DNA of 64,000 nt from assembly GCA_027066265.1 (NCBI GenBank), contig JAMOOB010000490.1, positions 3,111 through 67,110 on the forward strand, read 5' to 3'. The notes beneath the pieces were generated by a model that did no database searches, was not told the DNA's origin, and was given only the letters and a program-made list of their open reading frames with translations. Source of the DNA: Desulfurococcales archaeon. GTDB taxonomy: Archaea; Thermoproteota; Thermoprotei_A; Sulfolobales; Ignisphaeraceae. Positions within the stretch are counted from its first letter, which is position 1, and each line of letters opens with the position of its first letter. Positions 49,182 through 64,000 of this stretch are shown here, in pieces. The position numbers and the translations under genes are program-made.

Positions 49182-49247
49182 AAGCGGCCCCCAGGACGGT
49201 CGATACCTATATCTCGTCTGCAGTGCTCTCTGGCATTGGGTGTCTAC

Positions 49248-49838
49248 ATGCCGTTCATATTCGAGGTGCCTCCGGAGCTGAGGAAGAAGCATCCTCTGGA
49301 GCTGACCGAGAGCGAGCGAAGGCTGTTGAAGGCGTGGTACCTCTTTGAGCGCGGTGATAGAGCGCTTAACGTAGATCTTAGGCAGACCGCGAAGATCCCC
49401 GAGAGCGTCGAGGTGTGGATGAAGCATCCCAACAGGTACGATATTCCAGGCGTAGACACGCCGACGAGGGAGACCGGTATGCGTGTGGGTAGGCTGAGGA
49501 TAGGGAACGTCATTATATACCCAGCGACGCTGAGGAAGATGATCCTTCTATGCGAGCGCTTCCCCAGCGAGAGGATGCTCATCGTCTACGACGGGAAGGT
49601 GTGGATGCCGACGAGCAGAAGAGGCAGCAGGTTCACGCCCATCGATGTCGTTCCCAGCAAGAGCCTCGTAGCCGTCCTGTTCCCGAGGGAGAAAAAGGTG
49701 TGTCTAGCGAGGGTCTACAACGTAAGGTACAACAGGGCTACCGATACCGCAGAGATAGACTTCTCGATCTTCAGCGACCTCTGCAAAGAGCTTCCGCAGC
49801 CCGTGTGGCCAAAGCCTAGAGTATCCTCGAGACGCTAG
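49248..49838 (+). CDS. hypothetical protein
   Basis: 196-aa version of ORF 48948..49838 starting MPFIFEVPPEL. TTGGGTGTCTAC-ATG context. Confidence 0.5.
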   Translation: MPFIFEVPPELRKKHPLELTESERRLLKAWYLFERGDRALNVDLRQTAKIPESVEVWMKHPNRYDIPGVDTPTRETGMRVGRLRIGNVIIYPATLRKMILLCERFPSERMLIVYDGKVWMPTSRRGSRFTPIDVVPSKSLVAVLFPREKKVCLARVYNVRYNRATDTAEIDFSIFSDLCKELPQPVWPKPRVSSRR

Positions 49839-50004
49839 AGGAGCCGCTAACACGCGTCTCAACAACTATCCGTCTATACCCCTCGAACAGGTAGTCCCTA
49901 ACCACAACAGACCCTTTTTCCCACCTAACCTCGGTCTCCAGATACCCGCTCTTCGTATAGACGAAGTCCTCAGGAACAACCCTGACAAGGAGCTTCTCAG
50001 CCAT
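49816..50004 (-). CDS. small hypothetical protein
   Basis: 62-aa version starting MAEKLLVRVV after CTGGGGTTCTAC. Palindrome variant at 50063. Confidence 0.35.
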   Translation of the reverse strand: MAEKLLVRVVPEDFVYTKSGYLETEVRWEKGSVVVRDYLFEGYRRIVVETRVSGSSSVSRIL

Positions 50005-50084
50005 GTAGAACCCCAGCCCACTCCCTAGCGCGGAAGCGGAAAAAGAGGGGTTGTGACGCAGACCGCAGCTGTGGATAGGAGCAG

Positions 50085-50402
50085 TCACTTCTCCGGCTGT
50101 ACAAGCATGAACGTATCGTCGAGGATAGCCACGTACCTATCCTCACCGTCGCTGGGAACAGCATCGCATCTGGGTATAGTGGACGACCCCTGGTAAACGC
50201 GTAGGCGATGAAGCATACCGACAACCCTATCCGGATCAACACCGTCCGCACACAGCCTAGCCTTCTCCACCGTGATGTAGTAGTCCAGCAGAATCCTCAT
50301 CTCCAGAGGCGTTCTAACAGACAGCACGATCCTGCTACACCTCGTGCCGAGAATAGACCTAACGGCGTTCTCAAGAGTTGTGAACACCACGCGCATGGGC
50401 AT
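50085..50402 (-). CDS. small hypothetical protein
   Basis: TTTTGTTGGGG-ATG context. Confidence 0.45.
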   Translation of the reverse strand: MPMRVVFTTLENAVRSILGTRCSRIVLSVRTPLEMRILLDYYITVEKARLCADGVDPDRVVGMLHRLRVYQGSSTIPRCDAVPSDGEDRYVAILDDTFMLVQPEK

Positions 50403-50417
50403 CCCCAACAAAAGGTG

Positions 50418-50675
50418 TTACTCCTCGTATAGCACAGCTCCGAACCTCAGGATCGAGCTGATTACATCTAGCAGCTCGTCTACGTCTATAGAGAGCTCGA
50501 TGCCGTCTACACGTATGCTACACCCACAGCTGTGGAGATCTATACGAATACACCTAGCGGCGAACCCGCTTGAAGCAAGCACAACGCTGCTGAGGATACC
50601 GCTGTGAAACTCTACCTCTATATCGAACAGCTTCCCATCGAGAACGGCTACCCATCGATGCCTCTCGAACACCAA
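50418..50675 (-). CDS. small hypothetical protein
   Basis: 85-aa ORF with TTG/GTG start after CCCCACAGCTGGGGTTTTGA. Contains an internal perfect palindrome (50524). Confidence 0.4.
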   Translation of the reverse strand: MVFERHRWVAVLDGKLFDIEVEFHSGILSSVVLASSGFAARCIRIDLHSCGCSIRVDGIELSIDVDELLDVISSILRFGAVLYEE

Positions 50676-50787
50676 TCAAAACCCCAGCTGTGGGGTGTTA
50701 AGTGATGTTTGAGATATGAGATATGACATGTGAACCACGAAAATGGTGTGTCTCCCCAGAGCTATGGGTGTAAAGGGGGTAAAAGTT

Positions 50788-51525
50788 CTAGTCGTTGTCT
50801 AGATCGAGAAGCATTTCAAGCGACTGTCTCTGCCTCTTGATGCTCTGCACAACGATATCGTCTTCGTCGGCTGTCTCCTTGTACCTCTTCTCAAGCTCGT
50901 CGAGCTCGCTCGCAAGCCTCTGAAGAGCGCTGCGGTACTGCTTAGCTACGCCGCTGGCAACTGCTTCGACGGCTCTTCGAACTATGTCTAGCTTGGGTAT
51001 CCTGACAACGCCTCTCTCGCTCCTCCACCTAACCTCGATATCCTCGCCGTACTTGGTGTCATCCCATATCCACTTCACCTGAACACCATCGAACCACGTG
51101 ATCACAGCGCTCGCCTCAACCTCCTTCAGCACGAGCCCAGCCGCTTTTACGCACAGCTGCTTCAGAGCATCGATATCGATGGCGGGCTCTATCCTCGCCC
51201 AAGAATCGTAGCCGGTGGTGGTCGAGAACTCGATGCCTGTGTACAGCATGAACCCCGGCACGATCTCTATCTTCCTATCGGCGAACGCAAAGGGCTTCTC
51301 AACTATGGACGACGGTATATACGGTCCGCAGCACCTAACGAACTCCTCGAGCGTAGCAACGATGTTCCTCCTAGCCTTCTCCTCATCGCCACCGGCAATA
51401 TAGTCCTCGACAACGACCCTCATCCTATGAGTACCATAGTCAATAACCGCATCAACAGCTACAATGCTACCACTCTTCTCTCTCCTAAGCGTATCCCACA
51501 CAACCTCGTACCGCGGAAAAGACAT
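50788..51525 (-). CDS. hypothetical protein
   Basis: 245-aa ORF with CTGGGGATCGGA-ATG context. Confidence 0.6.
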   Translation of the reverse strand: MSFPRYEVVWDTLRREKSGSIVAVDAVIDYGTHRMRVVVEDYIAGGDEEKARRNIVATLEEFVRCCGPYIPSSIVEKPFAFADRKIEIVPGFMLYTGIEFSTTTGYDSWARIEPAIDIDALKQLCVKAAGLVLKEVEASAVITWFDGVQVKWIWDDTKYGEDIEVRWRSERGVVRIPKLDIVRRAVEAVASGVAKQYRSALQRLASELDELEKRYKETADEDDIVVQSIKRQRQSLEMLLDLDND

Positions 51526-51605
51526 TCCGATCCCCAGAGACTGTAATTGTTAGTACCACACAGCACGAGACAGTTCAGTTCTCGTCCCCACAGCTGTGAA
51601 AAAGG

Positions 51606-52556
51606 CTAGAGTACGCATCCCATGGAGGCTAGGTACGCGAGGTTGACTGTATCTGATGAGAATTCCAGACCCTCGTCGGGGAGTATATACACGCAACTTC
51701 TCGGTCCGAGTGGCTTCCTCGGTAGGTCCGCTCTTATCTCGACCTCCTGTACATCGTAGCGCCACACATCGACGTACTCCCTGTGGTCGCGACCCTCGTA
51801 CCTCATGTCATCTAGCGTTCTGTACGGCGTTAGGTACCTAACCTCGCTGAAGCCCCTCGCAATTGCCTTTCTGTCGCCTATCAGCAGCTCGGTTCTGAGC
51901 TCATCGTCTAGCGTGCGAACGATAAACATCGTCTGCGTCGCGTACTCGGATACGTCCTTGTACATCAGCCAGTGCGCAAGCGATAGCATCACATAGATGG
52001 CGTACGCGTTAGCGATGGTCGTAAAGCTCCTATCGGCGCTAAGAACCGCTCTCGCGAGACACCGTATCGGGATGGCGAGCGTCAGGACCCTGCCCATAAT
52101 GGTCTTCACCTCCACGGACCTCATCTCGAGACCGAGTACATTGATTAGCGCCTCAGGACGTGGTTCAGCCAGCGCATCACCGACGATAGGGAGGACCATC
52201 TCGATCTCGTGGTCCTCCATGGTTCTACTCACCATCACAACGAAGCGCCCTATCGCATCAATAACGATGTCCCTCACATCAACCGTACAGACGTAGAGAC
52301 GTAGCCTCGTGCCTAGGAGCCTAGACAGCTCCCTCTCGACCAGATCTAGATCAAGCACCCTAGTGGGCTCAACACCGAGCGATAGCAACCCCCTGTGACA
52401 CACCACAACAAGCGGCTCGATCCACACCTCGCGCTCCCTGATAACAAGATCGAACACAGCCGCAGCATCAACGCTACGACAATCGCTATACATGGTAGCG
52501 ATACGCCCTCTACACCCATCAACAGCGATAACATTAGCCCCGCGACTAAGCCCCAT
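51606..52556 (-). CDS. hypothetical protein
   Basis: Start trimmed to ATG 52556. Upstream on the coding strand: CTTATAC-N12-CCACAGCTGTGG-GGATCGCT-ATG. Confidence 0.6.
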   Translation of the reverse strand: MGLSRGANVIAVDGCRGRIATMYSDCRSVDAAAVFDLVIREREVWIEPLVVVCHRGLLSLGVEPTRVLDLDLVERELSRLLGTRLRLYVCTVDVRDIVIDAIGRFVVMVSRTMEDHEIEMVLPIVGDALAEPRPEALINVLGLEMRSVEVKTIMGRVLTLAIPIRCLARAVLSADRSFTTIANAYAIYVMLSLAHWLMYKDVSEYATQTMFIVRTLDDELRTELLIGDRKAIARGFSEVRYLTPYRTLDDMRYEGRDHREYVDVWRYDVQEVEIRADLPRKPLGPRSCVYILPDEGLEFSSDTVNLAYLASMGCVL

Positions 52557-52564
52557 AGCGATCC

Positions 52565-52576
52565 CCACAGCTGTGG
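52565..52576. promoter_or_regulatory. CCACAGCTGTGG palindrome (perfect)
   Basis: Lies 12 nt downstream of CTTATAC and 8 nt upstream of ATG 52556. Confidence 0.7.
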
Positions 52577-52812
52577 AAACAAGATACAGTATAAGGACGG
52601 GGGTTGTGGACTGAAGAATGTCTGGTGTTTTGTGATTAATGTTAATTGTTAACTCTTGTTGATTGATAGTCGATGTCCACTGATATTTTGAAGCCCCAGA
52701 TGTAAAAGTGGTTTAGGTACATACGATTAGTGTCGCTGCAGATCTTCGTCAGCGCGATTCCTGGGTTCGGCGTTTCCACCTCTCCACCTCCGCAGCTGTG
52801 GAGACGAAAATG

Positions 52813-52988
52813 GTTAGCTCTTCACGAAGCTGGTAAGCGGTTTAACCGGCTTGGGTCTCCTATCGATTAGATTAAGCCTGTCGCAGAGGATCGTAATCTC
52901 GTAGCTATCCGTATCTATCTCGATACGGTACGCTTCTCCACCTTGATGTAGCAGCTGCGGCTAGCATCGATAACGAGATGCTTCTTCA
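52813..52988 (-). pseudogene. possible frameshifted small gene
   Basis: ATG 52988 after CTGGGGGTAGAAC gives 24 aa (MKKHLVIDASRSCYIKVEKRTVSR). A -1 frame continues YRIEIDTDSYEITILCDRLNLIDRRPKPVKPLTSFVKS to a stop at 52813. Confidence 0.25.
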
Positions 52989-53106
52989 TGTTCTACCCCC
53001 AGAGAGATGATGTTGGTTGTGTTATGTATGATGTTATGTGAACATTGAATACTGAATTGCGTCGCGTGCTTGGCACTCCCCAAAAATAGTGTGTGGTGCT
53101 GCGGGT

Positions 53107-53703
53107 TCATTCTTGTGGGAGGAGGTTCTTGATTCTTGTGGTGATGAACTCGTGGGCTTTGGCTGGATCTGTAGATATGTATGTCTCGATCTCGAATCTT
53201 CCGTGACCCATCTTGGTTCCGCTCATGAGACCAACGTACCTGCCTCCGTAGGCTAGGGCAGCCACGAACTTGTCCACTACTGAGGCGTCTACCCTGGCTA
53301 CGAACGCTATGATGTGCACCGACGAGAGGTATTCATATGTTTCGCTCAGGTTCTTACCCTCCTTGCCGAATATCGGGCGCGTGTAGATGAACGGCTTCGG
53401 TCCGTAGACGTAGGCGTAGTTAGTGGCGATACCCTTCTCATCAACGATCTCGAAGTCGAGGATCTTCCTAACGACATCCTCCGGGTAGCCAAGAGCTCTA
53501 CACGCTCTTCTAAGCACGGCTCTGATCCACCTCCTCAAGATAATCGGTCTGCCATTGACATCCCTCGGAAACGCTCTGTCCAGATGCCTAGCCTGCTTAG
53601 AGTCGGCGATCCACCCCTTCTTGATGTACAGTGCAATCTCGTCCGCTGGAAGCACAGGTGCTCTGATGGGCGTCACAGGCTTGATTATGACACCTACATA
53701 CAT
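53107..53703 (-). CDS. hypothetical protein with RAMP-like (Cas7/Cas6-type) motifs
   Basis: MYVGVIIKPVTPI..., FPRDVNGRPIILRRWIRAVLRRA (resembles P.IPGSS.KG.LR) and the C-terminal glycine-rich loop VGLMSGTKMGHGRFEIE. The functional call is weak. Confidence 0.4.
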   Translation of the reverse strand: MYVGVIIKPVTPIRAPVLPADEIALYIKKGWIADSKQARHLDRAFPRDVNGRPIILRRWIRAVLRRACRALGYPEDVVRKILDFEIVDEKGIATNYAYVYGPKPFIYTRPIFGKEGKNLSETYEYLSSVHIIAFVARVDASVVDKFVAALAYGGRYVGLMSGTKMGHGRFEIETYISTDPAKAHEFITTRIKNLLPQE

Positions 53704-53739
53704 CGGGGAATTGGGGCTTGAGCGAGGCACAGCCCATCC

Positions 53740-53751
53740 CCACAGCTGTGG
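53740..53751. promoter_or_regulatory. CCACAGCTGTGG palindrome (perfect)
   Basis: TTTTT-palindrome-GGAT, upstream of the RAMP-like gene. Confidence 0.7.
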
Positions 53752-53798
53752 AAAAATGGTTGGAGCTGTATCTAGCATAAAGCGGATTTCTCCAATTG

Positions 53799-54059
53799 TT
53801 ATTCACAGATGTGTTTCTTGATCTCCTCCTTCAGCTCGTTAACGGTTTTCTCAAGGGCTGTGATAACGATCATAAGGAGTTCCTCGGCTAGCCTAGGATC
53901 GTTGATGGGTACGCCGCAGATATACACCGTGCCTTCCTCTATGCTGATTCCAACGGTTTGTCTGGTTCTAGCCGCTTCGATAGCATCGAGCAGGTTGATA
54001 TATGTGTCTAGAAGGATTCGAAGATGCGTTTTGTTGGAGAGCTGGGGCTCATACTCCAT
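53799..54059 (-). CDS. small hypothetical protein
   Basis: 86-aa ORF with CCACAGCTGGGGGCAAGAA-ATG context. Confidence 0.5.
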   Translation of the reverse strand: MEYEPQLSNKTHLRILLDTYINLLDAIEAARTRQTVGISIEEGTVYICGVPINDPRLAEELLMIVITALEKTVNELKEEIKKHICE

Positions 54060-54092
54060 TTCTTGCCCCCAGCTGTGGAAAAAGCTGTAGGG

Positions 54093-55442
54093 CTACGATG
54101 TGACCATCCTGATGGCTCCTCGTATAAGCTCCTCGACTGTGTTCACCTTTACGTGCCTGAAGTGCTTTAGCCATCCTGGTCTCCACGACGGTGGCAGGAT
54201 TATGAATCCGACCCTGTACCTGCTCGCAACCTCCTTGGCGAGGTCCTCCGGAACCTCGTCGATCCCGTCGGAGATCACGATGTATACCCTGTCGCGTCTG
54301 CCGATCCGCTTGATCGTCTTCAGCACCTCCTCGATGCTCGTACCTCCATCGGCGCAGATGGTGAGGAGCGTTCTCACAACGTCTCTGGGGCTAACCTTCT
54401 CGACCTCCGTGTCGAAGAGGTAGACCTCGCCGCCGAGCTTCCTGTACAGCGCTAGAGCTAGCCCCGCTGCGCCGGCGATCTTCTCGACGAGCTGCCCGGT
54501 CTCCGAAGGCATCGTCTCCGCCATGCTGCCGCTCTTATCCACGAATATCACCGGTCTGAAAGCGGCTGCGCGCTGGTAGACAACGGCTGTTCTGCTGAGG
54601 AGCCTAAGCGCGAAGAGCTCGAACGGCAGCACGTGCTCCGTCGTCGTCAGGTCCACGATCTGCCTAGGATCGCGCATTATTCCGACACCCGTTATGCCAC
54701 CGAACACGGCTGTCACATTCATGTGTTCGAGGGATGTCGGTACGGATGATAGCGCTAGCCTGAACATCCTCAGAGCGTTCTTCAGGATCCTGACGCGGTT
54801 GCGGAACTCATGGGGACGCTCGAGAAATGTCCACACCGATAGCGCATCATGGCTGTAGCCAGAGCAGCCACCCAGCATAGCCGCCGCCTCCTCTGCCTCC
54901 GCCTTCCCCTGCTGGTACTCCTGAACAGCCTGTAGCGCCGCCTGTGCAGCCGCTAGGGCTGCCCTCGTAGCCCTGTCGATGAGCTCCTGAAGCGCTTGGT
55001 TCAAGGCTTGACCTGTCAGCGTCTGTTGCTGTAGCTGCTTGATCTTCTGCTGAGCAACCTGCGTATCCAGCTCGGACAGCAGGTTCTTGAGGAACTGGTA
55101 CGCAGCGATAACAGCGAGATCCACAGAGCCAGCAGTAACCCTGTTCAGCCTGTAGAACTCGTCGGAAGAAAGGTAGTTCTGCATAATCTTGTGCCACACG
55201 ATACTCGCAGACTTCTTGACGTTTCTCATCACCGTCTCATAGGATTTGTAGTGAGACATAAACGCATCGAAAACCATGTAGAACCTCGGTCTGACCCTAG
55301 ACCTCCACAGCAGCCTAAACACATCGTTAGTGAACTGCGCATAGTACTCAACAGGCAGCCCCTCCAGGATACCCATCTTGAACACCGATTTCGCCAAGCC
55401 AGAACGGTAAAACGCTTCTTCTTGAGCCTTGTCAAGACTCAT
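54093..55442 (-). CDS. von Willebrand factor A (VWA/MIDAS) domain protein
   Basis: VIFVDKSGSM (DxSxS MIDAS) in the C-terminal half. Start trimmed to ATG 55442 after CCACAGCTGTGGGGTTGGAA. Confidence 0.8.
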   Translation of the reverse strand: MSLDKAQEEAFYRSGLAKSVFKMGILEGLPVEYYAQFTNDVFRLLWRSRVRPRFYMVFDAFMSHYKSYETVMRNVKKSASIVWHKIMQNYLSSDEFYRLNRVTAGSVDLAVIAAYQFLKNLLSELDTQVAQQKIKQLQQQTLTGQALNQALQELIDRATRAALAAAQAALQAVQEYQQGKAEAEEAAAMLGGCSGYSHDALSVWTFLERPHEFRNRVRILKNALRMFRLALSSVPTSLEHMNVTAVFGGITGVGIMRDPRQIVDLTTTEHVLPFELFALRLLSRTAVVYQRAAAFRPVIFVDKSGSMAETMPSETGQLVEKIAGAAGLALALYRKLGGEVYLFDTEVEKVSPRDVVRTLLTICADGGTSIEEVLKTIKRIGRRDRVYIVISDGIDEVPEDLAKEVASRYRVGFIILPPSWRPGWLKHFRHVKVNTVEELIRGAIRMVTS

Positions 55443-55450
55443 TTCCAACC

Positions 55451-55462
55451 CCACAGCTGTGG
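55451..55462. promoter_or_regulatory. CCACAGCTGTGG palindrome (perfect)
   Basis: Lies 8 nt upstream of the VWA gene ATG 55442. Confidence 0.7.
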
Positions 55463-55520
55463 ATATGGACAACAAGCGTAGTCATCCCCCAAACAAATGT
55501 CTATTGTTTGATGTGGTTTG

Positions 55521-55680
55521 GGTGCACCTAAACCTTTGCAGAGGGACGCAAGAATTGAGAGAGGTGCACCGAGATAGCGTCAAGACCTGGGTTTACATAG
55601 CCGATACAAAACATTGTGGAAGCGTTCAATGTTGCAGCCCCTGTATATACCGCTCCATCGCCGTAGCCGTCTGATGGTTT
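55521..55680 (-). repeat. GGTGCACC-box element plus duplicated promoter/leader, copy B
   Basis: GGTGCACC at 55521 and 55563, with the identical 35-mer at 55634-55668. Lies between the moxR-like and VWA genes. Confidence 0.7.
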
Positions 55681-55699
55681 GCTCAGCTATGTAAAAAGG

Positions 55700-56863
55700 C
55701 TAGGTGTTTCCGGCTAGCTTCTTCAGCATCTCCTTCGTCTCAGCAACCTTGTTGAGGTACTCCCTAGCCTGCGCAATGATAGCCTCTGCTCTTGGTTTGA
55801 GCCACGGCTTGTTGGCGATCTTGTTGAGGTCGAAGTCGACAATTTCCTGAAGGATCTTCTCGGCTTCGTCAAGTCTACAGCTTCTTATCAGCTCCTTGGC
55901 TCTGCTGAGCTTCTCGGCAAGCTCGCCGACCTCTCCGAGACCCTCCATAATGATCTTCTTGATCTGCTCATGCTCACTCCTATCGCGTGCTAGATACGGC
56001 AGTATCTTTATCGCTCCCTCCATAACGTTCTCTAAGCGCACACCGAACAGCGCCAGATAGGCGGCGAGGAGCTTCGGGAGCTTCTCGATGATGGTTCTAT
56101 CGCTAACGATAATGCCTTTGGCTCTGAGCTCCTTGACGAAGTTGATCACGTTGACATGGTACAGCTTGATGAAGTCCATATCCCTTATCCTGCTCCTTAT
56201 CAATGTGATGGTATAGCCATGAAGCGTCCTAACGTCGTCCATAGACGCAACGGGCTTGATCTCGTGCCCGTTGAGCCATCTAGCCTCCAGCGCTTTCAGT
56301 ATCAGCACATCATCGTTTAGGTAGTCAAAGAATATTCTGATACTGAATCGGTCGTAGAGAGCCTGCAGCTCCTCGTCCTGTGGCACCTCGTTACTAGCAC
56401 CAAATAAGCTCCACAGCTTGGCAGGAACCTCAGCACCGGACATCGGGTCGTAGAGTATCCTCTCCTGCATTAGAGCCAGCAAAGCGTTTAGAATAGCGCT
56501 GTTAGCCTTGAACACCTCGTCGAGGAACACTATCTCAGCATCCTTGATCTTCGTCCATTTCCTCACAAGATCTCCTCGTTCTCTAAGCGCTGGAATGTCG
56601 AACGGACCAAGAATCTCGATATCGCTGGTAAACTTGGTTAGTAGATAGCTGTAGAAGCTGGCGTTCAGCAGCTTGGCAAGGGTCTTGATAGTCATCGTCT
56701 TGGCTGTGCCCGGCGGGCTGATCATGACGGCGTGTTCCTTGGCAATCAATGCTAGGACAAGCATCGTATTAACCTCGTCGTGACCGATGACAACCGAGTT
56801 CAGAACGTTTAGAACCTGCTTAACGTTATGACGAGCGTTTTTCACTTCTTGAGGAACGGACAT
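55700..56863 (-). CDS. MoxR/RavA-type AAA+ ATPase
   Basis: VIGHDEVNTMLVLALIAKEHAVMISPPGTAKT (Walker A) and VFLDEVFKANSAILNALLALMQER (Walker B, RavA-like). Start trimmed to ATG 56863. Confidence 0.85.
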   Translation of the reverse strand: MSVPQEVKNARHNVKQVLNVLNSVVIGHDEVNTMLVLALIAKEHAVMISPPGTAKTMTIKTLAKLLNASFYSYLLTKFTSDIEILGPFDIPALRERGDLVRKWTKIKDAEIVFLDEVFKANSAILNALLALMQERILYDPMSGAEVPAKLWSLFGASNEVPQDEELQALYDRFSIRIFFDYLNDDVLILKALEARWLNGHEIKPVASMDDVRTLHGYTITLIRSRIRDMDFIKLYHVNVINFVKELRAKGIIVSDRTIIEKLPKLLAAYLALFGVRLENVMEGAIKILPYLARDRSEHEQIKKIIMEGLGEVGELAEKLSRAKELIRSCRLDEAEKILQEIVDFDLNKIANKPWLKPRAEAIIAQAREYLNKVAETKEMLKKLAGNT

Positions 56864-56889
56864 TTCAACCCCCAAAACAAACAAGGTGT

Positions 56890-57342
56890 TTACCAGGGCT
56901 CGGTAACGATCTGTACAGCTTTGATCACTTCGAAGCCTTTGAACTCGTGTATCTTGATTGTTCCGTCTGCATAGGTTGTTGCTGTTCGTCTATCTGGAGC
57001 CTCCTCGATGATTCTCTTGGCTTCCTCCCACGTTCCTACCGTTGCTATAGCCTCCATCTTCGCGTAGAGCACTGTAAATCCATACCTCTTCGATAGCTCA
57101 ACAAGCCGCGCTATAAACGATAGCGGTAGCACAGGCACAATTATCTTCGCATTGTGCTTCTGAGCAATTTCAACAACAGTTTCAGCATTAGGAACAGTTC
57201 CATCTACCTGAATAATCCTGATGTTCCCTAGCTTCTCCTTGAGCCTCTGGATCTGTACCGGCAACGGCTTGTGACGGCTAACCCATAGAACTACAGTTAC
57301 CGGCTCGGGATCGTTATAGATTTCAACGACTCTGAACGACAT
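56890..57342 (-). CDS. hypothetical protein
   Basis: 150-aa version starting MSFRVVEIY after CCACAGCTGTGGGGATCTCC. Confidence 0.55.
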   Translation of the reverse strand: MSFRVVEIYNDPEPVTVVLWVSRHKPLPVQIQRLKEKLGNIRIIQVDGTVPNAETVVEIAQKHNAKIIVPVLPLSFIARLVELSKRYGFTVLYAKMEAIATVGTWEEAKRIIEEAPDRRTATTYADGTIKIHEFKGFEVIKAVQIVTEPW

Positions 57343-57350
57343 GGAGATCC

Positions 57351-57362
57351 CCACAGCTGTGG
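57351..57362. promoter_or_regulatory. CCACAGCTGTGG palindrome (perfect)
   Basis: TTTT-palindrome-GGATCTCC-ATG 57342. Confidence 0.7.
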
Positions 57363-57384
57363 AAAACCCCAAAGAAAACAGTGT

Positions 57385-58689
57385 TTATCGTTGGGAAACC
57401 GTCTTCTCTAGCTCTTCCACCATCTTCTTGACTGCTTCATAGAGCTTTCTGCGATACTCAAGGTCTTCGTTGAGTCTCTTGAGGTATGACATCTTCTTCT
57501 CCGCTTTAGCCTTCTCAATCCTTTCCCTCAGCTCCTTCAACTCACTCTCAAGCAGATACTTAGCCTCGTTCAAGATATCGAGTGCCACTTCCGGTTCCAC
57601 GTATATCGGTATAACCTTCACAACGTACTTGCTGAGAAGCTTCGGGTAGTCGGGGCGAACCTTCGCCAGCGCCGGCATCTCGGAGAGCTTCCGTCGTATC
57701 ATATCAGCAACCTCCTCAGCAATCTTCACCGCTTCGTCAGTTACCGCAATCCATAGACCAGCCTGTCTCTCAGAGCCAAGATGTATGAAGTATCTACGTG
57801 CCTTCTTCGTTGCTTCCGTCCTGATAGTTTCGAGAGCACTGGCCAGCGCCCTTCTTAGCTGGTCATCGAAGTCCCTGATCTCGATAAAGCCCTTATCGGT
57901 CTTCTCAATACGTACACTCTGCACCAAGTAGCGGGAGGGTCTCACCCATCGCAGGATATAGAGCTTGACCAGCTGTGTCTTCTGGGGAACCTCCTTCTCT
58001 GTGGTAGCAGTTGTGGTAACAGCCTTAGCCTCCTGAACCTCCTCTTCCTCACCTTCCTCTTCGCCAAGAATCCGCTGTGCTATCTTCATCTTCATCTCTT
58101 CGCTTAGCTCCTCCTTCTCCTCCTCTGTTTCCTCCTGTTCTTCCTCTTCCTCTCCACGGATCTTCTTTAGCCATTCCTCGATGTCTTTAGCAATCTCTTC
58201 GAGCTTCTGCTTGTTCAGAACGAATACAACCGTCCCTGTATACTTCAGCTTACTCCCTGGCTTCCACGCCGGTATCGCTATCAACTCTGGATGCTCCTTC
58301 TCGATCTTTCTCTGTAGGCTGAACGCTATCGCCCATGCCTTCTTCTTGTCCTTGTCGTTGAAGACACCCTCGTATGCCGTCATCATCTTTGCAAAGATCT
58401 CGACATTCTTCTCCTCATACACTGCTCTATCCTGATACATCAGCTTTATTTCGAAACGCATACACTGTCCATTGACAGCGATATCGCTGCACATATTAGC
58501 ATCAGCAAAGTAGTAGGTGATCTCGGTCTTCAGAATATTTCCTAGCTCACGTCTATAGCCAACAATAGCTCTATCACTATCGTCAATAGAGTAATGCTTC
58601 GTATTCTTGATGTATACATCTTTGATGATCGATACGAGAAGATCCTTGACAGAGGTATACCTAACAGAACCATTTCCATTAGATGACAT
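57385..58689 (-). CDS. hypothetical protein with central poly-acidic linker
   Basis: 434-aa version starting MSSNGNGSV after TTTGGGGGTTGCA. Contains an EEEEEQEETEEEKEE linker. Confidence 0.6.
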   Translation of the reverse strand: MSSNGNGSVRYTSVKDLLVSIIKDVYIKNTKHYSIDDSDRAIVGYRRELGNILKTEITYYFADANMCSDIAVNGQCMRFEIKLMYQDRAVYEEKNVEIFAKMMTAYEGVFNDKDKKKAWAIAFSLQRKIEKEHPELIAIPAWKPGSKLKYTGTVVFVLNKQKLEEIAKDIEEWLKKIRGEEEEEQEETEEEKEELSEEMKMKIAQRILGEEEGEEEEVQEAKAVTTTATTEKEVPQKTQLVKLYILRWVRPSRYLVQSVRIEKTDKGFIEIRDFDDQLRRALASALETIRTEATKKARRYFIHLGSERQAGLWIAVTDEAVKIAEEVADMIRRKLSEMPALAKVRPDYPKLLSKYVVKVIPIYVEPEVALDILNEAKYLLESELKELRERIEKAKAEKKMSYLKRLNEDLEYRRKLYEAVKKMVEELEKTVSQR

Positions 58690-58715
58690 TGCAACCCCCA
58701 AACAAACAGGGTAGA

Positions 58716-58835
58716 TCATTCATCGTCGAAGCAGATGTAGACAGTACCATCATCGGGGTCATAATCCCATGCACCACCGTATGGAGCCGAGAAGTTGGGT
58801 TCGGTATAGAGAGCCATACAGTTCTTCCTCTCCAT
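58716..58835 (-). CDS. 39-aa small ORF (below the ORF-track cutoff)
   Basis: My translation: MERKNCMALYTEPNFSAPYGGAWDYDPDDGTVYICFDDE. Preceded by the conserved TTTTTGGGGGATCGAA-ATG module. Confidence 0.35.
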   Translation of the reverse strand: MERKNCMALYTEPNFSAPYGGAWDYDPDDGTVYICFDDE

Positions 58836-58865
58836 TTCGATCCCCCAAAAACAAGGAGGGTTGTA

Positions 58866-59102
58866 TCAGCGTGGAGGTGTATAGGGTGTGACCACGAGTC
58901 GTAGGCTCGACCTAACAGCCTTCTCTATCTCTCTACGCACTTTTCTGGATCTATGTCTTGCTGTAATGGGTATATTATCGGGCATCAGCTTGCTAACAAT
59001 GGTTTTGATAACATATGTTCTGAGACGCCTCGGATCATATCCATCATCGACGAGTAGCGTACCAAACAACTCATTACCTAGATAAACCCTCACGAGTTTC
59101 AT
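58866..59102 (-). CDS. small hypothetical protein
   Basis: 78-aa ORF with TTTTTGGGGGATCGAA-ATG context. Confidence 0.5.
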   Translation of the reverse strand: MKLVRVYLGNELFGTLLVDDGYDPRRLRTYVIKTIVSKLMPDNIPITARHRSRKVRREIEKAVRSSLRLVVTPYTPPR

Positions 59103-59204
59103 TTCGATCCCCCAAAAAGAAAGAAAAAGAAGATGAGAATAGGGTGAGAATAGCCAGACAGGCAGACGACAGCACGAAGCAGACTGCTGAGTTCGCTAGA
59201 TTTT

Positions 59205-59465
59205 TCAGAGAAAGACAGGCAGACACCTAACACAGATATACATAGTATCATCGACATTTACACACGCGTTATCGCGCTCCTCAAGAAGCTTGAGGAGCTT
59301 CTCTAGCTCCCTCTCCTCAACGGAATTAATAGTTGCACGAATAGCATTCCCTAGCTGCTGTAGCGAAGCAACAGCAACAACCTCACAATCGCATGGACTT
59401 GATATACCTGTTAATCTATCGTAACAAACACTGCACCTCTCAATGATATACAGCTCCAACTTCAT
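59205..59465 (-). CDS. small Cys-rich protein
   Basis: 86-aa ORF with CSVC...CDC...CVRC. Confidence 0.5.
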   Translation of the reverse strand: MKLELYIIERCSVCYDRLTGISSPCDCEVVAVASLQQLGNAIRATINSVEERELEKLLKLLEERDNACVNVDDTMYICVRCLPVFL

Positions 59466-59517
59466 ATTTCAATACCCCAGCTGTGGTTATGGTAGAACCC
59501 CCAAAGAAAAACGGTGT

Positions 59518-60045
59518 TTAAGATCGATTAGGAGATAGGTTTGGATATAGATAGCCGCGGTAAACACACTCAGCCTCCTCATCCTCGTAGAATACACAAT
59601 GATTAACATTGATACTGAGAACACCAGCTTCTACAAGCATCCATAGATCGACAAACTTCTTCAGCATCAATATATCGTCATGTCTGAGTATCCTAGGTCT
59701 CTTCTGCAGCACGTCTCTAAGAATCTCTAGCACTTTTGCAAGTTCTCCCATGTTGTTTCTCCACAGCCAATTTATTAACCAACCTAGTCTTTCCTCCTTG
59801 GTTCTCTTAACACTTCCACTTCTCCTAACCTCTACTATGTAGCATTCATATTCATAGGTCTTCCTCACAGTTATTTCAATCCCTAGTAGCTTCAGCACCT
59901 TTCTTGCCTTTACGAATCTTTTCCCCTTTGGTATCTTTGGTATCCATAGCACCGTAGAATCATTTGGAGAGACAATATGCTGTATAATTCTTGCAGCAAA
60001 TGATACGGCATCGTAAAACGTATCATATATTTTCTTATCAATCAT
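59518..60045 (-). CDS. hypothetical protein
   Basis: 175-aa version starting MIDKKIYD after TTTGGGGATTGAA. Confidence 0.55.
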   Translation of the reverse strand: MIDKKIYDTFYDAVSFAARIIQHIVSPNDSTVLWIPKIPKGKRFVKARKVLKLLGIEITVRKTYEYECYIVEVRRSGSVKRTKEERLGWLINWLWRNNMGELAKVLEILRDVLQKRPRILRHDDILMLKKFVDLWMLVEAGVLSINVNHCVFYEDEEAECVYRGYLYPNLSPNRS

Positions 60046-60088
60046 TTCAATCCCCAAAGAAAACGAAGGTGTTGCAATGGATTTGGGG

Positions 60089-60421
60089 TTATCGACTAAG
60101 AAGTTTGTTGACAAATACCTCGAACTCATTGGGAGTCATCTCGGCAGTTATCTCCACTTCGCCACCAGAAGTGATGGATACAACGTAGATGTAGAGGTAG
60201 TGCGTAGCTCCACAGGTACCACATTTTACGTACTTGATAACCTCGTTGATATCTGCCCTAAACACCTCTACTCTTCTGCTGAGTCTATCTACAACTATGA
60301 CCTCATCAGTTTCACTAGCGTTAACTATGGCTACATAGTCGTCGTCCTTAATAGCGTTGACTACCCTAAAAACGATGTTTAGTGTATCGAGATCTAGCTC
60401 TGCAACACGAATCATTTCCAT
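60089..60421 (-). CDS. small hypothetical protein
   Basis: About 108-aa ORF containing KCGTCGATH. Palindrome variant CTACAGCTGTGG directly upstream. Confidence 0.5.
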   Translation of the reverse strand: MEMIRVAELDLDTLNIVFRVVNAIKDDDYVAIVNASETDEVIVVDRLSRRVEVFRADINEVIKYVKCGTCGATHYLYIYVVSITSGGEVEITAEMTPNEFEVFVNKLLSR

Positions 60422-60449
60422 TCCCCACAGCTGTAGAGAAGGGAGAACC

Positions 60450-60478
60450 CCGTAGCCCCGCCAGTGGCGGAGCTACGG
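60450..60478 (-). other. GC-rich interrupted 12-bp hairpin
   Basis: CCGTAGC-C-CCGCC-AGT-GGCGG-A-GCTACGG, between genes 60579..60797 and 60089..60421. Confidence 0.5.
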
Positions 60479-60578
60479 AGCGGGGTCTGCGACCCCCAAA
60501 GAAACGGTGTTTGTATGGGTTTAAAACAGTATTGTAATCGGGAAGAAGCAGATGTTTTTCGTAGCAATCACAAGGCGT

Positions 60579-60797
60579 TTATTTAAGCGAGACACCGAGG
60601 AGGGTATAGATAGCAGCTAGCACAGATGCTGGAATCTCATAGGCTATAACATTAGGATCATCCTCATGCCAGAAGCTGAACTGCAAATTCATGTCTACTA
60701 TAATAGCAAAGTCGTCGTAGATGATGGTTCTATTGTCCTCAATAATTTCCAGCCGAGCAGGCTGAGCGTATTCATAACATAACCTAAACCTGATCAT
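60579..60797 (-). CDS. small hypothetical protein
   Basis: 72-aa ORF. CCCCCAGTCTGGGGGATCGAA-ATG abuts the GC-rich island. Confidence 0.5.
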   Translation of the reverse strand: MIRFRLCYEYAQPARLEIIEDNRTIIYDDFAIIVDMNLQFSFWHEDDPNVIAYEIPASVLAAIYTLLGVSLK

Positions 60798-60814
60798 TTC
60801 GATCCCCCAGACTG

Positions 60815-61858
60815 GGGGTTGTGGGGAGCCGGGGGCCTACCCCTTCATCCCTCCCCGTGCTTCCCCCACCCCGCATCCCACCCTTCTTGGGGTGGGGTTA
60901 GCCGGGGTAACCGGGCCCCGCCACATCCCCCCTTCCCCGCCCCCGGGCTGTTCACCCGGGGTACGGGTACGGGGTCGGGGGGGCCCTGGAGGCCCCACCG
61001 CGGAGAACCGCGGCTTCGCCCCCTGGGGTGCGGGGCTACCCACGCCCGAGTTACCTCGGGCGTGGGCGGGCCTTGGTCGGGGGCAGACCCCCGACCCCCC
61101 TACTCCTCTTCGCGAAGCCCCCGTGGCCCACCCCGTGGGCCCGGGGGGACTGCTCCCGTTCCCCGCGGTCCTTCCCCCGAGAGGCTGGTGGGCCATTACC
61201 CCACCAACACCCCTCGGGGTGGACCACGGTTCACAACGGCGGCGGGGACCCCTTCGGGGCGGGCTCCCCTCGGGGATGAACCGGGGGTTCATCCCATCCC
61301 CGGGGGTCATCCCCAACAGGTCGCACCCCGGGGATTGGTCCCCCCGTCGCAGCCCCCCACGCCCCCACCCCCTACCGGGGCTAACCCGGTAGGAAGGTGG
61401 GGGCAGACCCACGGGCAGGCCACGGGGGCACGGCGCGGGGCGGGGAGGAGCCTATGCCCAACCCCCTGCCCACCCCTCATCCCAACCCTCCTCACCCCAC
61501 ATTGCTGCGTTTACCTCGCCTCACCCGCCCACCCAAGCCCCCACCTTAAAGCCCCCCGGGGGCTCCGCCCGATCGGGCGGAGGGGTGGGCGGGTTCATCG
61601 GCTCATCGGGTTCCTGCTAATGACAGCGGTGTTTGGGGGATCATCGTCCTCGGGCGGATCGGGATGAGCAGGGGGTTCTGGGCGGCTCCTCCCCGCCCCC
61701 ACTGCCTCGCTTGCATCGCTCCTTCGGGCGGGGTGCCGCATCCCCCGCCCGGCGTTGCCCCGGGTTGGGTTGCGCCCGGGGTCGCCGGGCGGGTCTCGGT
61801 TGGTCATCCGCGCCCCGCCTTGCGGCGGGGCGCTCCCGTCCCCCGCCCGGGGCTCTCC
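60815..61858 (-). ncRNA. candidate large GC-rich structured RNA (strand and RNA status inferred)
   Basis: About 80% G+C. Perfect hairpins at 61039-61066, 61076-61095, 61118-61147, 61273-61295, 61371-61393, 61563-61582 and 61810-61833. ORFs in all frames are P/G/R-rich. BRE/TATA upstream on the minus strand. Confidence 0.35.
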
Positions 61859-61883
61859 GTGTATACTATAGGGGGAGCAGGGG

Positions 61884-61897
61884 TTAATATACTTTTC
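61884..61897 (-). promoter_or_regulatory. BRE/TATA-like promoter GAAAAGTATATTAA
   Basis: The minus strand reads GAAAAG-TATATTAA about 25 nt upstream of the GC-rich island. A perfect palindrome (61933) lies about 40 nt further upstream. Confidence 0.4.
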
Positions 61898-61932
61898 TAT
61901 CTGTGGAGGGATTGAGAATCGGTGGCTTGTTC

Positions 61933-61944
61933 CCACAGCTGTGG
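61933..61944. promoter_or_regulatory. CCACAGCTGTGG palindrome (perfect)
   Basis: Lies between the GC-rich island with its promoter and the GGCTCGCA array. Confidence 0.7.
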
Positions 61945-61995
61945 ATACGAGAAGGATGTGGAGAGAGCACAGAGGTCTTCTTTCCACGTCTTGTT

Positions 61996-62408
61996 GGTTC
62001 GCACTATTCTCGTGGGCACGGTCTTTCGGCTCGCATGGACTCGCTCCGCATGCTAAACGGGGCTCGCATATCCTCCCTCTACACGCGAGTTCGGTTCGCA
62101 CACGGTTTCGCCACACGGTTCTACGGATCCGCACGCGAGATCTCTACACCTCGTCTCCGGCTCACATGAGTAGGCTCGACACGAGCAAATGGTTCACACG
62201 AAATCTATCAACATATCTCGGCGGTTCGCATCCGCATAAAGTTTCTCCATATCGAGCAAAGCCTCGCGGCTCGCACAGTAAACCTACCCAGGGTCTTCTC
62301 GGCTCGCACACCTCTTCTGCGCACAGGAGACCTCGGCTCGCATCGGAACTCTTCCCAGGCCGGAGCCGGCTCGCAACGCAGTCCTGCACATTCATCGAGG
62401 TGCTCGCA
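61996..62408. repeat. 13-unit array of GG(C/T)TCGCA boxes with ~32-33 bp period
   Basis: Boxes at 61996, 62028, 62061, 62093, 62125, 62159, 62191, 62223, 62268, 62301, 62335, 62368 and 62401. The intervening ~23-nt segments are unrelated. Confidence 0.75.
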
Positions 62409-62416
62409 CAGGGGGT

Positions 62417-63337
62417 CTAGAGAGCTTGGGTGGCTTCGGCCCTCCTCTCGATCGCTAGGGGCACCTCCCTGCCCCGCGCGACGACGATTATCGGCGGGTA
62501 GTACATGTTCCTGATCCCGGCGAAGACCACGTACGGCGGTCTGTACGGCAGGCCCAGGATCGCGCAGTAGGCCTCGTAGTACTGCGAAAGCCATACCTTG
62601 GCCACGAGGCGGTACGCTCTGAGCGTAGCGTGCGACACTATAGACGACATCAGCTCCCTAGCCCTAGACCTGGTCACCGAGACGCCGAGGCTCTTAAGAG
62701 CCTCGGCAAACCCATCAACGTCCCTGCTCCTAGCAGCCGCAGCAACAGCCCCAACCCTATCACCGTCGATGGCATCGACGGCTGTACCCAGGTACCTACC
62801 GAGCTTCTGCGGAACGAGCTTCCTGATCTCCCGCTCCAGCCACTCCTCGAAGAGCGACCTGTAGAACCTGACGTTCCTAACCAGCTGCCTAGCGATCTGC
62901 CCCGTCACAGCCTTGCAGATCCTGTGGTAGCACTCGGCGCTACCGCACTTCTCGACGTAGTACTCCCTCGGCGCCCATCCGCACCACGCCCACAGCTTGC
63001 TAACGGTCTGAAACCTCCACGGATGGATGTTCCCTAGAACCAGACCGCTCAGCACAGTACCCAGCCCAGGAAGGTACCTGAGGTACTGCTGGTACACCGG
63101 GTGCCGCCTAACGAGAGGCTCCATCAGCTCCTCGAGCTTCTCCTTACCCATCTCAGCAGCCCTAACGATCTCCGGCGTCAGCTCGCACGGAAAGCCCTGC
63201 TCCCTACACACCTTCGCATAGAAGTTCTTGTAGCTCTGAACACGCTTCCTCTGGATCCAGTACAGACGCGAAACCTCGTAGAGCCTCATCTCGATAGACC
63301 TAACCGACTCGGGACAGCGAGACCAGTCGATGGGCAT
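62417..63337 (-). CDS. protein with IS110-family Transposase_20-like (HhH) segment; no obvious DEDD domain
   Basis: YLRYLPGLGTVLSGLVLGNIHPWRFQTVSKLWAWCGWAPREY resembles the IS110 L.iPGiG...a..l.aei.d..rF.s...l.ay.Gl.P signature. GGTGGAGGG lies before the ATG. Confidence 0.5.
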   Translation of the reverse strand: MPIDWSRCPESVRSIEMRLYEVSRLYWIQRKRVQSYKNFYAKVCREQGFPCELTPEIVRAAEMGKEKLEELMEPLVRRHPVYQQYLRYLPGLGTVLSGLVLGNIHPWRFQTVSKLWAWCGWAPREYYVEKCGSAECYHRICKAVTGQIARQLVRNVRFYRSLFEEWLEREIRKLVPQKLGRYLGTAVDAIDGDRVGAVAAAARSRDVDGFAEALKSLGVSVTRSRARELMSSIVSHATLRAYRLVAKVWLSQYYEAYCAILGLPYRPPYVVFAGIRNMYYPPIIVVARGREVPLAIERRAEATQAL

Positions 63338-63396
63338 AGCCCTCCACCGCTTCTCCAGCTATAAAGCACAGAGAATATAAGGTCTTTAGCATTGGT

Positions 63397-63408
63397 CCAC
63401 AGCTGTGG
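63397..63408. promoter_or_regulatory. CCACAGCTGTGG palindrome (perfect)
   Basis: Lies about 60 nt upstream of the IS110-like gene ATG 63337, with TATA-like CTTATATTC in between. Confidence 0.7.
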
Positions 63409-63661
63409 AGAGGGATAGAACGATGTGTAGCGCCAGAGACACACGTGTTCCACTATATACAGCGGTGTTACAGCTGTAACTATCGAGGAGATGAATAGCG
63501 GTAGACGAGGTTAAACCTCGTAGCACGGGTATCTGCACGGGAGTGGAGCCGTGTCCGCGAGAAGCATAGTCAAGCCGGTATGCATCGTGCTGGCGATATG
63601 CATAGCTACGGGTATCGCGGATATCGTGATAGACATCCTTTCGCGGTCTAGCGGTGCAGAC

Positions 63662-64000
63662 ATGTTCGCTGCTAGGATGGATAGCTATGACGATGTGCCG
63701 AACATCATTTCCACAGCTGTGGACAGCTGCTATATGTGTCCGCGCAGCGGTGATCCGCTTGATCTGGCTATGAAGGTGCTTCTCCGGTACAGGTACTGTC
63801 TGCACTACCCCTTCGACGAGGTGTGGCTGCCGATGACGGTGGCGATGACGAGGTGCGGAACATGTATGGACCTAGCGCTGATGCTGGTAGCGTCGGAGAT
63901 ATCCTCTGGTCACGAAGCGCTTCTGCTGCTGATCGACACCGGAGAGGAAGAGATCGGGCATGCAGCTGCGGCTATCAGGACGAGCAGCGGGTGGATCGTT
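63662..64000 (+). CDS. partial CDS, possible transglutaminase-like/papain-fold Cys peptidase
   Basis: Open frame from ATG 63662 (or ATG ~63733 just after the palindrome) to the window end. RCGTCMDLALMLVASE...IGHAAAAI looks like a Cys...His core. Confidence 0.35.
   Translation, partial: MFAARMDSYDDVPNIISTAVDSCYMCPRSGDPLDLAMKVLLRYRYCLHYPFDEVWLPMTVAMTRCGTCMDLALMLVASEISSGHEALLLLIDTGEEEIGHAAAAIRTSSGWIV

Follow-up and report, generated by a model that had tools for sequence, protein, structure and literature searches.

A probable TIGR-TasA module in a virus-like element from a Desulfurococcales archaeon

What does a gene for an IS110-type protein encode when the catalytic domain of that insertion sequence (IS) family is missing and an array of phased short repeats follows the gene? 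The question was raised by a 64,000-nt stretch of DNA from a Desulfurococcales archaeon (GenBank assembly GCA_027066265.1, contig JAMOOB010000490.1, positions 3,111 to 67,110 of the forward strand), which in its full length is called the window here. The gene is an open reading frame (ORF) at 62417..63337 on the minus strand, encoding a protein of 306 aa (P0001). A first-pass annotation had noted the IS110-type segment and the missing DEDD domain, and proposed a domesticated or novel RNA- or DNA-guided recombination or partition module, or equally a decayed IS remnant. In our study, the gene was found very probably to be tasA and the downstream array to be its TIGR guide array, with a tigRNA-guided DNA binder or repressor as the most likely function.

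The Tas protein and its domains

Besides an identical protein, a word-indexed protein search with P0001 returned only P0002 and P0003, which are distant relatives. The three proteins contained the TVSKLWAWCG and RPPY motifs in common and were similar over their full length. That search alone would suggest an orphan protein, whereas an exhaustive profile search with the alignment of the three revealed a family of thousands: 5,329 cluster representatives reached E ≤ 1e-3, and 2,371 of them E ≤ 1e-10. The members were mostly 230–430 aa long and were matched end to end. P0025 (266 aa) was a clear ortholog of P0001, with 44% identity over 295 residues. The NCBIfam model NF052498, TIGR_Tas_endo ("TIGR-Tas system RNA-guided endonuclease"), was matched by 59/59 aligned members, with a best E of 1.8e-54, and the same 59/59 matched phrog_4285, which is labelled "transposase". 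P0001 itself matched TIGR_Tas_endo with an E of 5e-17 (62.6 bits) over residues 23–256, covering profile positions 6–213 of 215.

Structures of Tas proteins gave the same result. The family profile matched TasR (9mty) in the PDB at 1e-54 and TasH (21kl and related entries) at 2e-32, followed by IS621 at 7e-4 and ISCro4 at 2e-3. P0001 alone matched TasR 9mty at 1.4e-11 (phmmer), residues 55–164 being the best-aligned stretch. The fold comparison suggested in the first-pass annotation was made by Foldseek on an AlphaFold2 model, and TasR and TasH occupied ranks 1–10 (E 1.7e-5 to 4.5e-4, probability 1.0, template modelling score about 0.5–0.58), with the IS110-type recombinases ranked below. The viral structure library gave a 309-aa protein of the same fold as its best match, along with another match annotated "Transposase IS116/IS110/IS902 family". 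P0001 had no tblastn match in the phage and archaeal-virus collection. A related-locus search of viral, metagenome and genome collections with P0001 or a two-sequence alignment, for which the peptide patterns were poorly chosen, confirmed no relatives. Faure et al. (2025, PMC12045711) gave Tas proteins without a nuclease the name TasA, under which P0001, having no N-terminal nuclease, therefore falls. Judged from its sequence and predicted fold, P0001 is a TasA consisting of the Nop domain alone, and the module is TIGR-Tas, a kind already described.

The ORF was intact, with an ATG start and a TAG stop at 62417–62419, and no upstream extension is possible because the start is the first start codon after a stop. 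The segment first noticed corresponds to residues 85–153, and its likeness to IS110 proteins held up: PF02371 (Transposase_20) matched residues 84–154 at E 2.9e-4, its 21.6 bits lying just over the gathering cutoff of 21.3, and NCBIfam transpos_IS110 matched residues 66–126 at E 1.4e-4. This likeness is statistically real but, for a single sequence compared with profiles, marginal; PF02371 was matched by 35/59 family members (best 7.6e-11). The loss of the DEDD domain was likewise borne out. A Pfam scan of P0001 gave no PF01548 match even at E ≤ 10 and no match to a nuclease family, neither HNH nor RuvC, and the family profile started at residue ~10–23, with no N-terminal nuclease extension. 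The AlphaFold2 model, made from a 59-sequence alignment, had a mean predicted local distance difference test (pLDDT) score of 87.6 and a predicted template modelling score of 0.83; it was all-alpha with zero strands, so a RuvC-like fold is absent.

The N-terminal ~84 aa, described earlier as ~85 aa of helical sequence, were indeed modelled as two long antiparallel helices (10–46 and 54–78, pLDDT >90 in the monomer model). Residues 10–78 (63104..63310, minus strand, as are all features of the gene given below) contained invariant Y26 and Q29 and R32 in 58/59 relatives, and by analogy with the description of the TasR structure (PMC12045711) they are predicted to form a coiled-coil dimerisation domain. 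They are followed by a helix-hairpin-helix/Transposase_20-like Nop core (PGLG...TVSKLWAWCG) at residues 84–154 (62876..63088). A lineage-specific helical insertion was found at residues ~184–222 (62672..62788), with modelled helices at 192–203 and 207–216; the ortholog P0025 is without most of it (32 alignment gaps at residues ~183–219). A CxxCxGxG zinc ribbon (DnaJ_CXXCXGXG) was matched in 10/59 relatives, and in P0002, the sole relative where its position was seen, this insertion was placed in the equivalent variable region. Column conservation marked residues 223–269 (62531..62671) as a conserved C-terminal Nop helix ending LGLPYRPPY, in which H236 and Y269 were near-invariant and R243 and K247 invariant in the 59-relative alignment. 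The supposed unrelated extension of ~145 aa at the C-terminus was thus a misreading: residues 155–270 belong to the conserved family domain; the TIGR_Tas_endo match runs on to residue 256, and the four residues just named lie in this C-terminal part. The last segment, residues 270–306 (62420..62530), was a mostly flexible tail without His; pLDDT was <50 for residues 272–302 and 304–306, and residues 272–306 were predicted to be disordered. A TATA-like box, TTTATA, lies ~22 nt upstream of the ATG (63360..63365), which is consistent with an archaeal promoter and a leaderless or near-leaderless tasA mRNA; a sigma-70 promoter scan gave nothing relevant.

The repeat array and its counterparts in relatives

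The phased repeats on the 3' side of the gene proved to be a dual-repeat TIGR array (61965..62408, minus strand) of 13 units of 32–34 nt. The array started 9 nt past the tasA stop, on the tasA strand. The 13 units spanned 62408–61972 and were followed by a terminal degenerate partial edge, UGUGCUC, at 61971–61965. Each unit contained an 8-nt edge (UGCGAGCC), a spacer A of 9–10 nt, a 6-nt loop (UGNNNA) and a spacer B of 9 nt. Seven units were 33 nt long, five were 32 nt and one was 34 nt.

The first unit, U1 (62408–62376), contained the edge UGCGAGCA, spacer A CCUCGAUGAA, loop UGUGCA and spacer B GGACUGCGU. The edge UGCGAGCC was found in six units, whose spacer A, loop and spacer B were, respectively, GGCUCCGGCC, UGGGAA and GAGUUCCGA in U2 (62375–62343); GAGGUCUCC, UGUGCGCA and GAAGAGGUG in U3 (62342–62309); GAGAAGACCC, UGGGUA and GGUUUACUG in U4 (62308–62276); GCGAGGCUU, UGCUCGA and UAUGGAGAA in U5 (62275–62243); CCGUUUAGCA, UGCGGA and GCGAGUCCA in U11 (62068–62036); and GAAAGACCG, UGCCCA and CGAGAAUAG in U12 (62035–62004). 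The edge was UGCGAACC in U6 (62230–62199; GCCGAGAUA, UGUUGA and UAGAUUUCG), U10 (62100–62069; GAACUCGCG, UGUAGA and GGGAGGAUA) and U13 (62003–61972; AACAAGACG, UGGAAA and GAAGACCUC). U7 (62198–62167) contained the edge UGUGAACC with AUUUGCUCG, UGUCGA and GCCUACUCA, U8 (62166–62134) the edge UGUGAGCC with GGAGACGAGG, UGUAGA and GAUCUCGCG, and U9 (62133–62101) the edge UGCGGAUCC with GUAGAACCG, UGUGGCGA and AACCGUG. U5 and U9 were irregular, and 12 irregular nucleotides followed U5. The loop was 6 nt long in ten regular units, and loops of 8 and 7 nt were present in three irregular ones.

The UG nucleotides were conserved at the start of 13/13 edges and 13/13 loops. Of the 13 edges, 11 ended in CC plus a G or an A; the regular 6-nt loops all ended in A (10/10), and CC was absent from them. 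The first spacer nucleotide was biased towards G, both after the edge (9/13) and after the loop (9/13). Six of the seven exact copies of TGCGAGCC in the 64 kb were located in the array, on one strand and in 33-nt phase, the whole-window expectation being 3.5. No second array was found in the window.

Arrays were also found after the tas gene in the ortholog and in the two distant relatives, as expected if homologs are linked to such repeats. At the P0025 locus (L011, L012, L013 and L103) 15–16 units directly followed the stop codon on the strand of the gene, with the identical edge UGCGAGCC, 6-nt UGNNNA loops and mostly 32-nt units; zero spacers were common with the window. This array ended in a T-rich stretch, followed by a TFIIB-like gene. 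At the P0003 loci an array of the canonical 36-nt type lay downstream, composed of a UGCGAGCCA edge, 9 nt, a UGAAACCCA loop and 9 nt; at the P0002 loci the array after the gene had the edge AGCGAGCCA, ~9 nt, the loop GACAACCA and ~9 nt. In the relatives L011, L007 and L004 the tas gene was thus followed by an edge equal or nearly equal to that of the window, with other spacers, and in 4/4 tas genes examined the array lay 3' of the gene and in the same direction. The window edge is homologous to the canonical UG...CCA edges, and the minus strand is therefore the guide strand.

A metagenome DNA-pattern scan for the edge repeat at 31–34-nt spacing returned >120 loci. Many were true TIGR arrays with the same edge and with 34-nt (L082, L093 and L015) or 31-nt units; short unit length alone is not peculiar to the window array. 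One archaeal-looking locus (L107, Ga0190313_1000216) encoded a 312-aa TasA, 26% identical, in which the Y/H dyad discussed below was intact, with arrays on both sides of the gene. They comprised a short upstream and a ~45-unit downstream array (1921–2060 and 4520–5940) of 31-nt units with the edge UGCG(A/G)GCC and a degenerate 6-nt loop. Two other loci (L040 and L048) contained TGCGAGCC at 33-nt spacing in near-identical 33-nt tandem units (e.g. TGCGAGCCCGGCTGCGACGCCGGTGCTGGCTGC) and were rejected as Cys-rich 11-aa protein repeats; such coding repeats form a class of false positives for TIGR finders that rely on motifs. L086 was rejected as a plain tandem repeat. A stricter edge pattern gave only bacterial matches in genome contigs, with no pointer to a host, and no matches in viral contigs.

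Proposed function and rival explanations

Homology, fold, the lack of a nuclease domain, the anatomy of the array and the pairing of a conserved edge with variable spacers were established in the analysis, and from them we infer the following for expression, processing, dimerisation, DNA binding and biological role. The tasA gene and the array would be co-transcribed from the minus strand, because the gap between stop codon and first edge is 9 nt and a TATA-like box lies upstream. On the model of the tigRNAs of 36 nt described before, the precursor would be cut inside the edges into RNAs of ~32–33 nt with the order 5'-AGCC, spacer A, UGNNNA, spacer B, UGCG-3'. A TasA dimer, joined through the predicted N-terminal coiled coil, would bind one tigRNA, anchored at UG (box D) and at CC/A (similar to box C). 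The target would then measure ~18 bp and consist of two neighbouring half-sites, in which the two ~9-nt spacers pair with opposite strands. The outcome would be sequence-specific DNA binding or transcriptional repression and not cleavage, since P0001 is without a nuclease domain; binding or repression without cleavage was found by experiment for another TasA, MbTasA (bioRxiv 10.64898/2026.09.09.750476). The RNA-guided module proposed by the first-pass annotation accordingly stands as far as a guide array adjoins the gene, and falls as far as novelty is concerned, the kind being the known TIGR-Tas (PMC12045711).

Several observations weigh against this assignment. Previous studies reported that TIGR arrays contain two alternating repeats of 8–12 nt with 9-nt spacers, each repeat having UG (box D) at its start and CCA (box C) at its end (PMC12045711), with a uniform 36-nt guide in dual-repeat systems (bioRxiv 10.64898/2026.09.09.750476). 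The units of the window are 32–34 nt long instead of 36 nt, and in the 6-nt loop repeat nothing but U, G and the last A is retained, with no CC for box C; box D is thus present in edges and loops, and box C is partial and asymmetric between them. A metal-independent Y/H dyad processes the pre-tigRNA (Y289 and H296 in SpTasH; PMC13421893) and is said to be conserved in dual-repeat systems (bioRxiv 10.64898/2026.09.09.750476). Y269 of P0001 aligned with the catalytic Y289 (RPLY289 over RPPY269, TasH 21kl), but the position of H296, 7 residues past Y269, was occupied by R276, and no His was present in residues 270–306. His was absent from the C-terminal tail of the ortholog P0025 as well. Of the 59 relatives, 55 had a His at +4 to +12 relative to the Tyr, and these two had none, which makes self-processing by the published mechanism doubtful. 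The 62.6 bits of P0001 lie below the curated equivalog cutoff of TIGR_Tas_endo (100), so that P0001 is a divergent member, and no canonical T-run terminator was read in the window sequence 3' of the array. The search for targets took spacer A joined to reverse-complemented spacer B, as well as the mirror arrangement, allowed gaps of 0–3 and included shuffled and wrong-geometry controls; all 13 guides remained without a target in the 71,471-bp genome of the element, in L001 and in L011, the matches being at noise level. As no guide matches its own genome, self-regulation is disfavoured, and the targets are probably host genes or DNA or competing mobile elements.

The short units, the minimal loop and the missing catalytic His are variant traits worth recording and no new kind. 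They could be taken further: P0001 and its ortholog would then represent a lineage in viruses of hyperthermophilic archaea that breaks two rules of dual-repeat systems, with ~32–33-nt guides carrying a 6-nt loop without box C and with no catalytic His. Because this His is absent, the guides would mature by a different route, through a host RNase, Arg276 as a substitute or another viral factor. In the boldest form, prompted by the lack of a T-run terminator between them, the array would be co-transcribed with the 1.07-kb GC-rich element, whose RNA would be a part or a regulator of the system. We consider this reading unlikely.

Four other explanations deserve to be weighed against a tigRNA-guided TasA. 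The absence of cleavage would be mistaken if a nuclease were recruited in trans, or if a cryptic catalytic site resided in the insertion or the tail, and the protein then cut as TasR and TasH do. Among solved structures none is closer than that of the archaeal nuclease TaTasR, and residues 184–222 have no assigned function. The insertion, however, consists of two short helices and is absent in the ortholog, no beta-strand occurs in the whole model, no nuclease family was matched in the protein or in the scanned neighbours, and published TasA proteins bind and do not cut (bioRxiv 10.64898/2026.09.09.750476); we therefore regard an RNA-guided nuclease as improbable. The repeats could alternatively be iterons of a replication origin or a partition site, bound as DNA by a Rep- or ParB-like helix-hairpin-helix protein with no RNA guide. 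Phased short repeats do adjoin a DNA/RNA-binding protein on a circular extrachromosomal element, partition had been proposed before, and Faure et al. (PMC12045711) described inhibition of plasmid maintenance and an association with tasParB at some TasA loci. Yet the edge is common to the arrays of distant bacterial and phage relatives, a family that yields tigRNAs by experiment, and the alternation of conserved with fully variable segments, together with the lack of spacers common to the orthologs, fits guides. No ParB-like gene or other sign of a partition module was found nearby, which leaves partition unsupported, and there is only a slim chance that the repeats are iterons.

Guides that pair with RNA (host rRNA, tRNA or mRNA), as in RNA modification or targeting of the box C/D type, would suit an archaeal host, and the Nop domain, the coiled-coil dimer and the dual guides are common to archaeal Nop5 small ribonucleoproteins (sRNPs) (PMC12045711). 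P0001 has no N-terminal fibrillarin-binding domain, though; the repeats, as read from their sequence, contain no extended box C (RUGAUGA-type) or box D (CUGA-type) motifs, the top sequence and fold matches are Tas proteins with Nop5 not among them, and all characterised Tas proteins target DNA. RNA targets are accordingly a slighter prospect still. Least credible of all is a decayed or truncated IS110-family IS, a non-functional remnant whose transposase lost its DEDD domain. The marginal Transposase_20 and transpos_IS110 matches and the label of the PHROG family agree with it, but all 306 aa, beyond the Transposase_20 part, align to thousands of proteins of similar size, the 44%-identical ortholog keeps both the architecture and an array of its own, and the similarity to Tas is far stronger than that to IS110. 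The ORF is intact with a plausible promoter, and the "YESGS" motif carrying the catalytic Ser of IS621 aligned to "REYYVEK" of P0001, upstream of the invariant G132, without a Ser, the register of this profile alignment being approximate. No sign of IS ends or multiple copies was seen, the gene being single-copy in the window, though no explicit search for element ends was made. The idea of a remnant is almost certainly wrong, and with neither DEDD nor Ser at the aligned position the recombinase function entertained at first is lost as well.

TIGR-Tas was described only in 2025, and most known loci are on short metagenomic contigs. Here a TasA and 13 guides are present in an apparently complete circular archaeal virus-like genome of ~71.5 kb. 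The locus and its ortholog indicate that a dual-repeat system can do without the catalytic His, with shorter units and a degenerate loop, which may be of use for defining the minimal RNA and protein requirements of TIGR-Tas and for better array finders. The protein is potentially a thermostable, very compact DNA binder free of a protospacer-adjacent motif. Where a Transposase_20 domain without DEDD stands beside short phased repeats, the combination reliably marks TIGR-Tas rather than a decaying IS.

The surrounding element and known systems

Positions 1–1867 and 52417–64000 of the window mapped to one contig of the European Nucleotide Archive (L001), which closes a circle of ~71.47 kb, or a terminally redundant element. 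L001 adds 7.47 kb outside the window, which encode a resolvase and also a CCA-adding enzyme of class II (PolyA_pol plus HD). The element also encodes a superfamily 2 helicase, AAA ATPases and glycosyltransferases. A minus-strand ORF of 2060 aa (19807–25989) contained a Laminin_G_3/concanavalin-like domain (E 9e-30) and may encode a tail-fibre or adhesion protein. A MoxR-type AAA ATPase (55700–56884) adjoins a VWA-domain protein (54093–55475); its tblastn matches include Sulfolobus monocaudaviruses and Acidianus and Bicaudavirus records, and this pair of sequences hints at a relationship to large tailed spindle viruses. No tRNAs or Rfam families were found in the window, a 1403-aa protein had no match in the phage and archaeal-virus collection, and no ParB-like or other operon partner of tasA was found among the scanned neighbours. 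From the gene content, the TFIIB-like gene at the ortholog locus, the TATA-like promoters and the GC content of 55%, we infer a virus or plasmid of a thermophilic archaeon.

The structured GC island on the 3' side of the gene, noteworthy in its own right, proved as real as described. It extends over 1.07 kb (60800–61870) with 70% GC against ~55% for the genome, and is packed with perfect hairpins of 8–12 bp. The fold z-score was about -10.9 on each strand, with a minimum free energy of -699.8 kcal/mol on the minus strand and -664.7 kcal/mol on the plus strand. The island had no Rfam match and no periodic direct repeats; it was rejected as a TIGR array of the stem-loop type, as CRISPR and as a known RNA, the best Rfam candidate being one CRISPR-DR9-like hairpin of 30.5 bits against a gathering threshold of 45. 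A TATA-like AAAGTATATTAA lies just upstream of it on the minus strand (~61885–61896), and a Pro/Gly/Arg-rich ORF of 282 aa on the island (60819–61667, plus strand) is probably spurious. The suggested tie between island and gene fared less well than the island itself: the island was absent from the examined loci of the ortholog and of L107, and with its absence from the ortholog locus no link to the TIGR-Tas module is shown.

A perfect 12-bp palindrome, CCACAGCTGTGG, with a PvuII core, was present at 47 sites of the window at ≤1 mismatch, against 0.1 expected (for example 8702–8713, 33349–33360, 52565–52576, 57351–57362, 61933–61944, 63397–63408 and 63711–63722). About 17 copies were located 2–10 nt upstream of minus-strand ORF start codons; one copy lay 60 nt ahead of tasA, and the stretch that separates the array from the GC island contained another. 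The palindrome looks like a genome-wide regulatory or operator motif. Tandem tracts were found as ACCTACT-type repeats at 32036–32214 and as ~15 copies of the 12-nt GGTACCCAAGTC with a 60-nt super-period at 32523–32728.

As far as the description by Faure et al. (PMC12045711) goes, TIGR arrays have been noted in archaeal viruses, with reference to Acidianus tailed spindle virus (ATSV; their ref 39, Hochstein et al. 2016). On that description the circular ~71.5-kb element resembles ATSV in bearing a TIGR-type array in an archaeal virus of ~70 kb, and the MoxR ATPase and VWA pair, with the matches to monocaudaviruses and Acidianus/Bicaudavirus records, adds to the likeness. It differs in its GC content of ~55%, and positions 40000–60000 of the window had no nucleotide similarity to the phage and archaeal-virus collection by megablast.

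Among guided systems, the Nop5 box C/D sRNP, in which L7Ae binds K-turn box C/D motifs of the guides, is distinguished by a domain before the coiled coil that P0001 does not have, and Nop5 was not among the significant Foldseek or hidden Markov model matches. The bridge-RNA recombinases of IS110 (IS621, 8wt6; ISCro4, 9t56) have a homologous Transposase_20/Nop domain after a coiled coil and guide RNAs of dual segments. P0001 differs from them by the lack of DEDD/RuvC and of a Ser at the aligned catalytic position, and the window contains a multi-unit guide array in place of a single bridge RNA; no Rfam family was matched in the tasA flanks. SpTasH of Salicola phage CGphi29 (9w03, 9w04 and 21kl) has the Nop fold and the C-terminal RP(P/L)Y in common with P0001, with Y269 corresponding to Y289, whereas it carries an HNH nuclease at its N-terminus and H296 where P0001 contains R276 and a His-free tail. 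TaTasR of the Thermoproteota archaeon LB_CRA_1 (9mty) was closer to P0001 than any other solved protein, with a sequence match of 1.4e-11 and Foldseek rank 1 for the fold, and is likewise of archaeal origin with a dual-repeat array, a Nop domain and a coiled coil; it bears, however, an N-terminal RuvC nuclease of ~105 aa and cleaves both DNA strands, whereas P0001 starts with the predicted coiled coil.

The described TIGR-TasA systems, FpTasA of Flavonifractor plautii and MbTasA of Minisyncoccota (PMC12045711; bioRxiv 10.64898/2026.09.09.750476), are the known systems of the same kind. The window system departs from them in its units of 32–34 nt and not 36 nt, its 6-nt UGNNNA loop without the CC of box C, and its edge ending in CC(G/A) and not CCA. 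P0001 departs by the missing His of the Y/H dyad, a helical insertion of ~40 aa and an NCBIfam score under the equivalog cutoff, and its setting is a virus-like element of a (hyper)thermophilic archaeon. Common to both are a protein made up of the Nop domain alone, with an N-terminal coiled coil that is predicted for P0001 and without a nuclease, the UG that opens either repeat, and a location on mobile genetic elements.

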